From assembly GCA_963693365.1 (NCBI GenBank), contig CAVNZM010000006.1, positions 2,046,001 to 2,110,000 on the forward strand: a DNA stretch of 64,000 nucleotides. Direction: 5' to 3'. A model generated the notes under the pieces. It was not told where the DNA came from. It saw only the letters and a list, made by a program, of their open reading frames with translations, and ran no database searches. This stretch comes from Amoebidium appalachense (lineage: Eukaryota > Protista > Ichthyosporea). Made by a program: the position numbers and the translations under genes. Shown in pieces: positions 17,101 through 20,100 of the stretch (its first letter is position 1; the number at the start of each line of letters is the position of its first letter).

Positions 17101-20100
17101 TTGGACCCCCCTCCGCTCATCGATCAGCCCCCTCTGATTGGTGACCATCCTCTCGGCATGTCCTTTATGGGTCCTGGGGGCCCGGTTGGGCGCGGGGGTC
17201 CCGGAGGACCTGGGGGCCCGAGAGGACCTGGCCCTCGGCCGTTTAGACCCCCCCACCCGATGGGTGGTCCCGGGGGACCAGGCCCACGTGGCCCCCCCAT
17301 GGGAATGCCGCAGTTTGGGGAGCCGTTCGAGGACTTTGGCGAGCACATGGATTATGGCCCTGACATGCATGAGGTGAGACCCCCCCCCCCCCCCCCACTG
17401 TTGCACCTACACGTGTACAAGATTAAGCATTTGTGCATACCAGGAGGGGTGTATGAGCTGTGTTGGTGCGTTGATGACGTGTGAGGGTTTCTTTTTTCCT
17501 TTCCTTTTTTTTTTTTTGGGGGGGGGGGGGGGGGGGGGGGGGGGGGGGGATGTGTGTGTGTGTGTGTGTGCTTGTGCATGGTGAGTGTGTGAGTGTATGT
17601 GTATGTGTATGTGGTGGCTGTAGTGGTGGTGGGGTGTGTGTGTGGAGGGGAATGGGGGTGGTCGTGGTGTGTGTGTGGGGGGGGGGGGAGGGGGGGGGTA
17701 AGAGAGAGAGCGGGGGGAGGGGGGGGGGTGAGGGTGGATGGAATTTGATATTAATCTTACTGCTGGTTCCTGAGCATCTCTTTCCCCCTCCCCCCCCCCC
17801 CCCCCCCCCCCCCCCCTCACACACACACACACGTACACACACACCGCCTTCCTTCCAAGTTGTTCTCCCCAAACCTTCACTCGGCACAGAGGAGGTATGG
17901 AAAGAACATTGTAGTGAGGAAGCCCACATTCAGCCACTGACTGTGTGCACGCAGTACGAGCAGATGGGGATGATGGGTGGTGGGCCCATGGACCAGATGG
18001 GCCCCCCTCCACAGATGGACCTGAGACACCGTATCGGCCAGCCCCAGGTGGCTTAATCCTCTCTCACCCCCTCTCTCCCCCGGTGGTTGCGGTGTGCACT
18101 CTGCATTGTGTTGTCCGTAAATAATGTGTACTTCCTACTCGATAACACATGCAAATCCCCTCTTGAAGGGCCCCTTCCCCTGCCCCCCTCCTCCCTCCCC
18201 CCCCTTTACTTCCATGCAACCGGGCATGGTTGCTCTGTGTCGTGCATTTGTAAGCACATACGCATTTTCCGCTGCACTGCATTAGTTTGCACACACATAT
18301 TCACCGTTTTGCTCACCTTGCTTGCATAAGCAACCCTGCTCGTCTTTGATCAAGACGGGTTGACCCTCCCAAGTTCAGTTGATGCTGCTGTCTGAGTTGG
18401 AGAGTCGTATATACGCGGGCTAAGGGGTCGAAACTCAGACGCAATTGATGACTTGGGCCCTCCTTGAGGATGGGCTCTGCTTATGACGCATACTGTGCGC
18501 ATGGCTGATGTTGCATACTTGAATGTTTGCCTTTGCATGTGTCCTGCACCATGCTTCTCATCGTGTATGCGTACTTCGTACCGTGTTCCGCATTCAAAAA
18601 AAAAAAAAAAAAAAAAAAAAACGACTCTGCAGGGTCCCCTGAGACTACTGACATTCTAACATTCCCTCCCCTCTCTTACTTCACCCCCCCCCCCCCCCCC
18701 TCTTTTTTTTTTTTTTTTTTTTTTTTTTTTTTTTTTTTTTTCCCCTCCCTCCCTCCCCTCCCTTCCCTCCCCCCCCTCTTTTTTTTTTTTTTTTTTTTTT
18801 TTTTTTTTTCCCCCTTCTCCTCCCCCCCCCCCCCCCCCCTTCCCCTCCTACCTTCTTTTTCCCCCCCCCCCTTCCCCCCCCCCCCCCCCCCTGGCCAAAC
18901 CCTGTATACACTCTTCTCATCAGCAGGTCTCTAACCCACTCTGCAGAACGTTTTACGCATTTCTCCCCTCGGAGAACTTGGTCGTTGGTGCGTTTTTGTC
19001 TGACATCTAACGACTCTGCAGGGTCCCCTGAGACTACTGACACTCTAACATTCCCTCCCCTCTCTTACTTCCCCCCCCCCCCCCTCCCCCTTTCCCTCCT
19101 CCTTCCCCTCCCATTTTCTCTGCACACCCAACAGGTCTTAACCAGATCTGCACATCGTTAGTCACAATCTTCTCACATATATGAGAGAATGATCGTATTG
19201 GTACGATTTGTCTAATATCTGACGATTCTGCAGCATCCCTAAGACCCCCCTCCCCCTCCCCTCCCCTCCCCCCCCCCCCCCCCCCCCCACCTCTCTCTCT
19301 CTCTCTCTCTCTCTCCCTCCCCCTCTCTCCCTCTCTCTCTCTCTCTCTCTCTCTCTCTCTCCTCCCTCTCTCTCTCTCTCTCTCTCTCTCTCTCTCTCTC
19401 TCTCTCTCTCTCTCTCTCTCTCTCTCTCTCTCTCTCTCTCTCTCTTTCTTTTTCCTCCTTTTTTTTTTTTTTTTTTTTTTTTTTTTTTTTTTGGCGCCTG
19501 TTGTTTTGCTTGTCATTTGTTGTTCTGGTTGATTACCTGTAATCTTCGCTTATTTATGTGTGTGTGTGTGTGTGTGTGTGTGTGTATGTTGTGCGGGGTT
19601 GCACATACCGGTGTCTACTTTTCTTCTTACTGTTTTTCTCTCCACACACTTCATCTGTCCACTTCTGCATACCCCCTTTCATAGCTATAGACACACTTCA
19701 CACATTGCGTTACGCGCACGCATGCACACACCGCTCTGTTGGCGACAGCTCCCTTGGAACCCATGCGGCATGTTACCCGCCGGCGTAACATAACTCGGAC
19801 TATCGGTTTGGCTTTTTTCAAGCCCAAAGCAATGGGTGATACCATATTTCCGGCTGACATCCGGGGGCATAGCTTTCCGTTCGAAGACGATAAAGTTCCG
19901 CCCTAGTAAGCGTGTTACTACCCTGCGGCGTGGGTCAAATCTCATATTTTCCCCTCTGATTACGAATTCTGTGGCCTTCGGGACTTAATTCTTTTCAGCT
20001 GGTGTAGTATGTTAGCCAGGGAAGTATCGACTTAGGTATCGACGGGGGAGCTTCCTAGAAGCCCCGTCTCCTGAGTTCCTATCTATATTTTTCTTGCTTC

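Follow-up and report, generated by a model that had tools for sequence, protein, structure and literature searches.

Natural hammerhead ribozymes whose conserved blocks run in the order S-G-C cleave (Eckert et al. 2023, PMC10085705). In these SGC hammerheads a helix ties stem I to stem II and a U follows A9, and in some of them the far end of stem III joins the tying helix directly, a link that the authors could not explain; type CSG comprises two sequences only, both metagenomic. Among Penelope-like retroelements, minimal hammerheads are thought to work as dimers (PMC4209133), and Naiad and most Chlamys elements were reported to have no canonical hammerheads, with sequences flagged as 'HHR_core' and 'HHR_half_core' (Craig et al. 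2021, PMC8557442). Here we analyze a repeat-rich stretch of 64,000 nucleotides from the ichthyosporean Amoebidium appalachense (contig CAVNZM010000006.1, positions 2,046,001 to 2,110,000, forward strand; hereafter the window, whose numbering is used throughout) and describe a repeated ~160-base RNA fold. From its sequence, the fold probably contains a rearranged hammerhead core, predicted to cut after U18398, near the 3′ end of a repeat that is likely a non-autonomous retroelement of the Penelope-like (Naiad/Chlamys) kind.

The window holds five full copies of the fold (A to E, all on the + strand) and four 5′-shortened copies (Table 1). The original prediction had drawn from copy A a closing stem, a hairpin, an arm bent by a kink-turn (k-turn), an apical stem and a loop strand that pairs back as a pseudoknot, and each of these helices lies where it had been placed, the apical stem reaching 18398/18432. 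Pairing is kept across the diverged copies: in alignment A1 (five rows, 47 pairs) 94.5% of 235 cells are paired, against 36–39% in a control with slid partners, six pairs are changed on both sides, and the score was reached by 1 of 500 shuffles. The five rows represent only three subfamilies and their kinship inflates the pairing and covariation figures, which are support for the fold and not proof of it. Folding z-scores are modest on both strands (−1.3 to −2.7 on +, −1.3 to −3.9 on −), so the strand cannot be chosen from folding energy; the + strand is set by the k-turn, the hammerhead core and the 3′ tail. The joint in the arm agrees with a standard k-turn, whose definition and ~50 degree angle we take from PMC4316175: the consensus (C-stem, 3-nucleotide bulge, G·A and A·G pairs) is present in four of the five copies, being broken in E where the A at 1n is replaced by C, and the conserved G·A letters have no variant rows at 4% and 3% cut-offs in the contig data. 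For copy E, the letters of a proposed basal GACCCU/AGGGUC stem are present, yet a 3′ hairpin competes for them. The earlier structure was nevertheless incomplete, as it overlooked a second pseudoknot and the hammerhead core, and the statement that the fold belonged to no known family is not supported: the conserved letters are those of a hammerhead core in non-circular order, with the earlier pseudoknot as stem II.

The hammerhead blocks follow one another in the order S-G-C (positions numbered as in the scheme of Eckert et al. 2023). In copy A, block S supplies the cleavage triplet G16.2-U16.1-U17 (GUU, 18396–18398), block G supplies C11.1-GAAA (18429–18433), in which A15.1 pairs with U16.1, and block C is the CUGAGGA site (18464–18470), directly after the stem I 2.x strand (18460–18463); stem II supplies the G10.1-C11.1 pair. 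All five copies place C11.1-GAAA between stems II and III and can form the pairs G10.1-C11.1 and A15.1-U16.1, and all have a triplet of the NUH type, GUU in every case, followed by a stem I of 3–5 continuous pairs. Copies B, C and D have the complete set of core letters together with both pairs. CUGAnGA stands directly after stem I in B, C, D and F, not in A (U at position 3) or E (CUGACCG in its place). At 18464, C makes up 1308706 of a depth of 1310426 (99.9%); the U is private to copy A, and the family sequence is therefore CUGAGGA. Pair 3 of stem I varies between copies, reading A-U (A and D), G-C (B), G-U (C) or U-A (E); G-C is likely the B-family state, since C depth at 21467 in run X3 (576373 of 1201711) about equals the B-only depth nearby (519549 at 21443).

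Read along the strand, the order is 10.x, interaction helix, 16.x-U17-1.x, small hairpin, 11.x-GAAA-15.x, interaction helix and 2.x-CUGAGGA, which is S-G-C opened between A9 and G10.1 with a closing helix and a hairpin inserted there. The covarying stem II strand thus lies upstream, behind the inserted helix and hairpin, and the core is split after A9. The k-turn forms the joint between the tying helix of stems I and II and the far end of stem III. Weinberg et al. (2015) reportedly described variants of the hammerhead that carry additional helices. Hairpin loops at 18347–18352, 18406–18415 and 20230–20237 are palindromic in the A and B families and not in E, and the small-hairpin palindromes of the two families differ in sequence.

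With types SGC and CSG (PMC10085705) the motif has in common two core pseudoknots and a stem I linked to stem II, and it shares with SGC the S-G-C block order, the extra helix tying stems I and II, the U after A9 and the direct link between stem III and that helix. The tying helix of SGC corresponds to the C-stem of the k-turn here, and the k-turn occupies the joint that was left unexplained. Unlike either type, the motif has its stem II 10.x strand upstream and block C split, an arrangement that the paper assumed impossible, and the SGC examples come from metatranscriptomes whereas this is a repeat in a eukaryote genome. A by-hand comparison with the SGC descriptor (CUGAUGA(U)G, linkers of 0–8 and 0–15, stem I of 4–7 and stem II of 2–6 beyond the core pair; PMC10085705) found N7 to be G, linkers of ~21 and 20 bases and a broken stem II, and an unbroken block C, in which the stem II strand would begin no more than 1–2 bases after A9, gave four continuous pairs in none of the five copies. 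Because both the descriptor and the unbroken block C failed, the motif, a hammerhead by the anatomy read from its letters, is outside every listed type (I–III, SGC, CSG, GCS). Full-text literature searches, largely without subscription papers, returned no description of a split-core hammerhead, nor is one described in the available portions of PMC3088659, PMC10162972, PMC12192606 and PMC13725137.

The same arrangement can be traced in Naiad elements. In the supplement of PMC8557442 we viewed places matching four spellings of CUGAnGA (60 of 62, 10 of 25, 10 of 23 and 10 of 43), 40 of them in the Naiad consensus file, and at 10 or more of these 40 a split fold with a canonical core could be drawn by eye, its elements running from a closing helix after A9 through a hairpin, an upstream stem II strand, an interaction helix, a bend, stem III and stem I to GAAA. 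Among the 10 are the opening record of the file, three records from Acropora and two from Octopus; another 4 places are ambiguous or no more than probable, and 20 fall within open reading frames (ORFs) or are without the fold. Six places in the nematode section, also among the 40, read by eye as clean type CSG. The two Octopus records make the bend with a standard k-turn, located at the corresponding joint but with its strands exchanged; one further record has a k-turn-like loop there, and the rest have a bulge or insert. The Acropora helices measure 13–14 plus 10 base pairs (bp) against 14 plus 9 here, and a helix matching P1b after A9 is likewise seen in Naiad ends. Craig et al. 2021 left this split fold undescribed; their table lists several canonical Penelope and Hydra hammerheads with the U at position 17 that we find here. 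The listed Naiads differ from the present family in being animal elements that favor (TA)n, whereas ours favors C-tracts and has yielded no ORF. A match to the untranslated region of an annotated retrotransposon, which the original prediction had named as an outcome that would refute it, is borne out in architecture, by eye, for Naiad 3′ ends, and not in sequence.

Copies A and D are elements of 392 bases, B and C are tandem copies of ~900 bases, and all share a 3′ tail. A profile search with this tail places nine 3′ ends in the window, with the motif ~90–110 bases from the fixed end. Chlamys elements target (C)n and include non-autonomous and head-to-tail forms (PMC8557442), and the present family resembles the non-autonomous ones in its (C)n targets, in shared 3′ ends finishing ACCCCC, in 5′ truncation and in head-to-tail copies: C-rich tracts follow seven of the nine 3′ ends (the other two having a short C-tract and, in copy A, poly-A), four of nine copies are shortened from the 5′ side, and B and C form the one tandem pair from which a pseudo-LTR structure might be judged, its members separated by other repeats. 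Loose contig ends reading AACCCCC, in 34 and 87 contigs, resemble several Chlamys ends. A few Chlamys elements from Chara carry canonical type I hammerheads, unlike the motif (PMC8557442), and one Chlamys end with nine letters in common with block G was set aside for want of a full core. The motif is also like the minimal hammerheads of Penelope-like elements and of retrozymes without long terminal repeats (PMC4209133; bioRxiv 10.64898/2026.07.22.740005) in its location in a repeat, the extra base between 9 and 10.1, its palindromic loops and a possible need for two copies; those ribozymes are of type I with a tiny stem III, whereas stem III here has 14 bp and the order is non-circular.

The family is large, because thousands of contigs in run X3 match A and C (4354 aligning to A and 2958 to C); the density in the window suggests thousands of copies, an abundance that rests on contig counts only, contig depth being no copy number. 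For the same reason the summed depth of run X7, which climbs from 30520 to 557516 toward the 3′ end, was not used. No position at which many molecules stop was seen in the contigs, which by their nature do not record RNA ends. One X7 contig over 21376–21473 represents another subfamily, in which the 3′ strand of stem III is shorter but C-GAAA, the k-turn strand and CUGAG are retained. No homologue outside the host was found in viral, metagenome and prokaryote collections: pattern matches there (24 viral, 4 metagenome, 0 in a second viral search and 1 prokaryote) were rejected as chance. Model R1, which gives true copies 168–219 bits, scored 28 outside loci at no more than 17.6 bits, only across the searched pattern, and locus L029 at 2.4 bits; a 20.7-bit match at 7587–7725 of the window covers flanks only and was dropped.

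Over both strands of the whole window, a strict S-G-C pattern with CUGAnGA(U)G matches copies B, C and D only, and in a structure-keeping null it was found 13 times in 1,046,147; a looser, any-order pattern was found 299 times in 995,953 and has one other match in the window. Several observations weigh against a rearranged hammerhead in a Penelope-like element. Both patterns were composed after inspection of the motif, and the strict one fails in two of the five copies, A and E. The covarying stem II strand is detached from block C; the strand that directly succeeds A9-U forms two pairs and then meets a G·G mismatch, pairing at five of six positions in A and D, four in B and C and two in E. 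Blocks S and C each contain CUGAG, and a local duplication, which lies outside the nulls, could account for some of the pattern match. By a crude rigid-helix estimate, a coaxial stem II would stand 51–61 Å away from the interaction helix within one molecule, against 29–43 Å, equally crude, for a V-shaped fold with only the pseudoknot first described. Folding prediction pairs U17 with A14 (p 0.59–0.81 in A to D) and engages the stem I 2.x strand mostly elsewhere. The Naiad folds were judged by eye, with record names partly taken from file order, and the split fold is absent, by eye, from the Chlamys places and ends viewed in PMC8557442. No Penelope-like ORF (reverse transcriptase with an N-terminal GIY-YIG endonuclease) appears in six frames of copy B or in a Pfam scan of the 23 ORF pieces of the window. 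Copy A is followed by poly-A, and a fragment resembling a long interspersed nuclear element (LINE) lies within the window.

The duplicated CUGAG, the poly-A, the 5′ shortening and the LINE-like ORF piece, which has a relative with an RVT_1 domain, would all suit an account in which the hammerhead likeness is chance plus a short duplication and the fold serves a short interspersed element, moved by a LINE, as its 3′ recognition domain. We consider this improbable, given null rates of 1e-5 to 3e-4, the recurrence of the same element order, inserted helix and hairpin included, in Naiad ends, and the 3′ end of the LINE piece, which is unrelated to the motif and where model R1 finds no match.

If the motif is a hammerhead as we propose, cleavage after U17 would follow the usual G12/G8 chemistry and would process element transcripts that bear tandem copies. 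Reverse transcription is likely the work of a Penelope-like enzyme that primes at C-tracts, and this would yield 5′-shortened copies. The C3U change likely weakens copy A, and copy E is likely dead. In the crude model a single molecule fails to bring the active fold together, so activity may depend on two copies that dock tip to base, a geometry that in the model would remove the 51–61 Å gap and that the palindromic loops of the A and B families would fit; lone intron copies would then be left mostly uncut. Homodimer energies are ~−11 kcal/mol in all five copies and, lacking a control, were not used as evidence. The same gap exists on paper in cleaving SGC ribozymes, so the estimate may be too rigid. 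A wider proposal, that Naiads carry an overlooked split-core permutation whose k-turn form occurs in this unicellular animal relative and which cuts only when two copies dock, we regard as tentative and rather doubtful.

The motif might instead descend from such a hammerhead and no longer cut, serving as a V-shaped, k-turn-bent 3′ handle bound by the reverse transcriptase of the element or by a host L7Ae-family protein. This is unlikely in our estimate, even though the V-fold suits the helix lengths better, U17 can pair with A14, three full copies lie in sense within one inferred intron, E retains its helices but not G8 and A9, and the motif stands close to a fixed 3′ end. Against an inert handle, G8, A9, G12, A13 and stem I are conserved in both large families with no variant rows, the Naiad examples have canonical cores despite very different helix lengths, the cleaving SGC ribozymes share the unexplained link, and ~43% of Xenopus retrozyme copies are intronic.

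A split-core, k-turn-linked permutation in a likely Penelope-like repeat would be a new hammerhead variant, with a topology beyond the six permutations thought possible and its catalytic strand split after A9. A k-turn would also have been shown to serve as a building element of a natural hammerhead, exactly where the SGC study had met its unexplained link. Were two-copy docking true, tandem element transcripts would be processed and many lone intron copies silent.

The first description of this locus had likened the fold to a riboswitch. Hepatitis delta virus (HDV)-like ribozymes are marked by P3/L3 and a catalytic C in J4/2. A selenocysteine insertion sequence (SECIS) has an AUGA/GA core, AAR 11–14 bases above it and a place in the 3′ untranslated region of a selenoprotein gene, and a box C/D small nucleolar RNA carries box C near its 5′ end and box D near its 3′ end, inside a terminal stem. 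In copy A, GGCUAA ahead of the pseudoknot strand resembles the J4/2 strand of HDV. In S-adenosylmethionine (SAM)-I and cyclic di-GMP (c-di-GMP)-II riboswitches a standard k-turn does bend an arm and so allow the arm's loop to pair back (PMC4316175). A ligand-binding riboswitch-like or HDV-like RNA acting on host introns is nonetheless very improbable: Rfam gave no match at gathering score across the window and, at E ≤ 5 over 18050–21700, just two matches, both to CA repeats, there was no match to the SAM-I or c-di-GMP-II covariance models, no expression platform was seen, and the helices that pair back are stems I and II of the hammerhead. P3/L3, looked for by eye from the pseudoknot strand to the apical stem, is absent, the B family has U or G at the place of HDV C75 (21426 T>G, 276753 of 589557), and the copies behave as a high-copy mobile family. 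What survives of the first description is a selected three-dimensional, ribozyme-like fold with a standard k-turn in a mobile non-coding element. SECIS was rejected (UUGA or GUGA as core, the helix topped by GG and no ORF upstream), as were a box C/D small nucleolar RNA (no box C after the closing stem and no Rfam match) and, in by-eye comparisons with the twister alignment and the pistol connectivity, twister and pistol.

Table 1. Copies of the repeat in the window and parts of the motif in copy A
Feature	Position	Strand	Remarks
Copy A, whole short element	18204..18596	+	motif from 18325; 5′ start same as D; ~25 A follow
Copy B, long form	19493..20388	+	motif 20151-20305, ~80% identity to A; predicted cut after 20222
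Copy C, tandem partner of B	20683..21575	+	motif 21337-21491, ~80% identity to A; predicted cut after 21408
Copy D, A family, intact core	26418..26810	+	motif from 26539, 98% identity; predicted cut after 26612
Copy E, third subfamily	43836..44074	+	motif from ~43853, 68% identity; broken k-turn, CUGACCG
Copy F, 5′-shortened A-family piece	47941..48076	-	3′ piece, ~48076; mitoferrin intron
Remnant G, 3′ tail only	18084..18153	+	
Remnant H, 3′ tail only	16349..16401	+	
Remnant I, 3′ tail only	62634..62686	-	MAT1-like gene intron
3′ tail of copy A	18486..18596	+	last 55-90 bases common to all nine copies
Closing stem P1, 5′ strand	18325..18332	+	pairs 18478-18485
P1b, 5′ strand CCC	18334..18336	+	can pair 18472-18474 just 3′ of A9-U; 3′ hairpin competes
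Hairpin P2, inserted ahead of G10.1	18338..18360	+	palindromic loop UGAUCA in A and B families
Stem II 10.x strand, pseudoknot strand GACCC of the original prediction	18362..18366	+	G10.1 = 18362; partner GGGUC 18425-18429
Interaction helix tying far ends of stems I and II, C-stem of k-turn	18368..18377	+	pairs 18449-18457
k-turn bulged strand: 3-nucleotide loop, G1b, A2b, U3b	18378..18383	+	partner U3n G2n A1n 18446-18448
Stem III 16.x strand, ends G16.2 U16.1 U17	18384..18398	+	predicted cut after 18398
Stem I 1.x strand, second pseudoknot	18399..18404	+	pairs 18458-18463; pseudoknot 18399-18402/18460-18463
Small palindromic hairpin in link from stem I to stem II	18406..18415	+	from sequence
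Block G: stem II 11.x, C11.1 (18429), GAAA, stem III 15.x	18425..18439	+	
Block C: stem I 2.x strand, CUGAGGA (position 3 = U only in copy A), then U, G	18460..18472	+	

The intronic setting claimed for the copies rests on splice signals in the case of A, B, C, F, G, H and I: one intron, 18049–22070, of a CCCH zinc-finger gene would hold A, B, C and G, an earlier intron would hold H, and introns of mitoferrin and MAT1-like genes would hold F and I. Copy E would lie in the last intron or the 3′ part of a synaptobrevin-like gene, and D has no placement. Among 120 listed matches to the mitoferrin exon, the top identities are to two ichthyosporean proteins, CFRG0438 (a Creolimax prefix; 60%) and one of Sphaeroforma arctica (59%), against 49–58% for the other, mostly animal, listed matches, which points to a unicellular holozoan as the likely host. 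Insertions are in sense at all five separate sites, a bias that is not significant because C-tracts exceed G-tracts 79 to 50 on the sense strands.

No tRNA head was found in the repeat. The 650-base 5′ part of B and C (19493–20145) has several hairpins, no tRNA and no clear ORF; 20860–21065 is covered by one deep contig in run X10 and by many contigs in run X3. At 18204, 15 contigs of run X3 share extra sequence 5′ of the A element, which shows that A also comes in a longer form, and a joint leading from 18540 back to 18212 occurs in three runs, DNA among them. The same intron holds a second, multi-stem repeat family of two subfamilies on the + strand (18622–18678, 18918–19067, 19113–19244 and 20449–20586), with one 5′-shortened copy, ends that run into C-tracts and a folding energy of ~−44 kcal/mol for 18918–19062 (no shuffle control). 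Elsewhere in the window, the 5′-truncated LINE-like ORF piece spans 37910–38953 (+), has one distant relative with an RVT_1 domain and is followed by poly-A near 39060–39100, a DUF1264 gene of several exons occupies 1938–5105 (−), and a 46-base near-perfect palindrome lies at 40617–40662.

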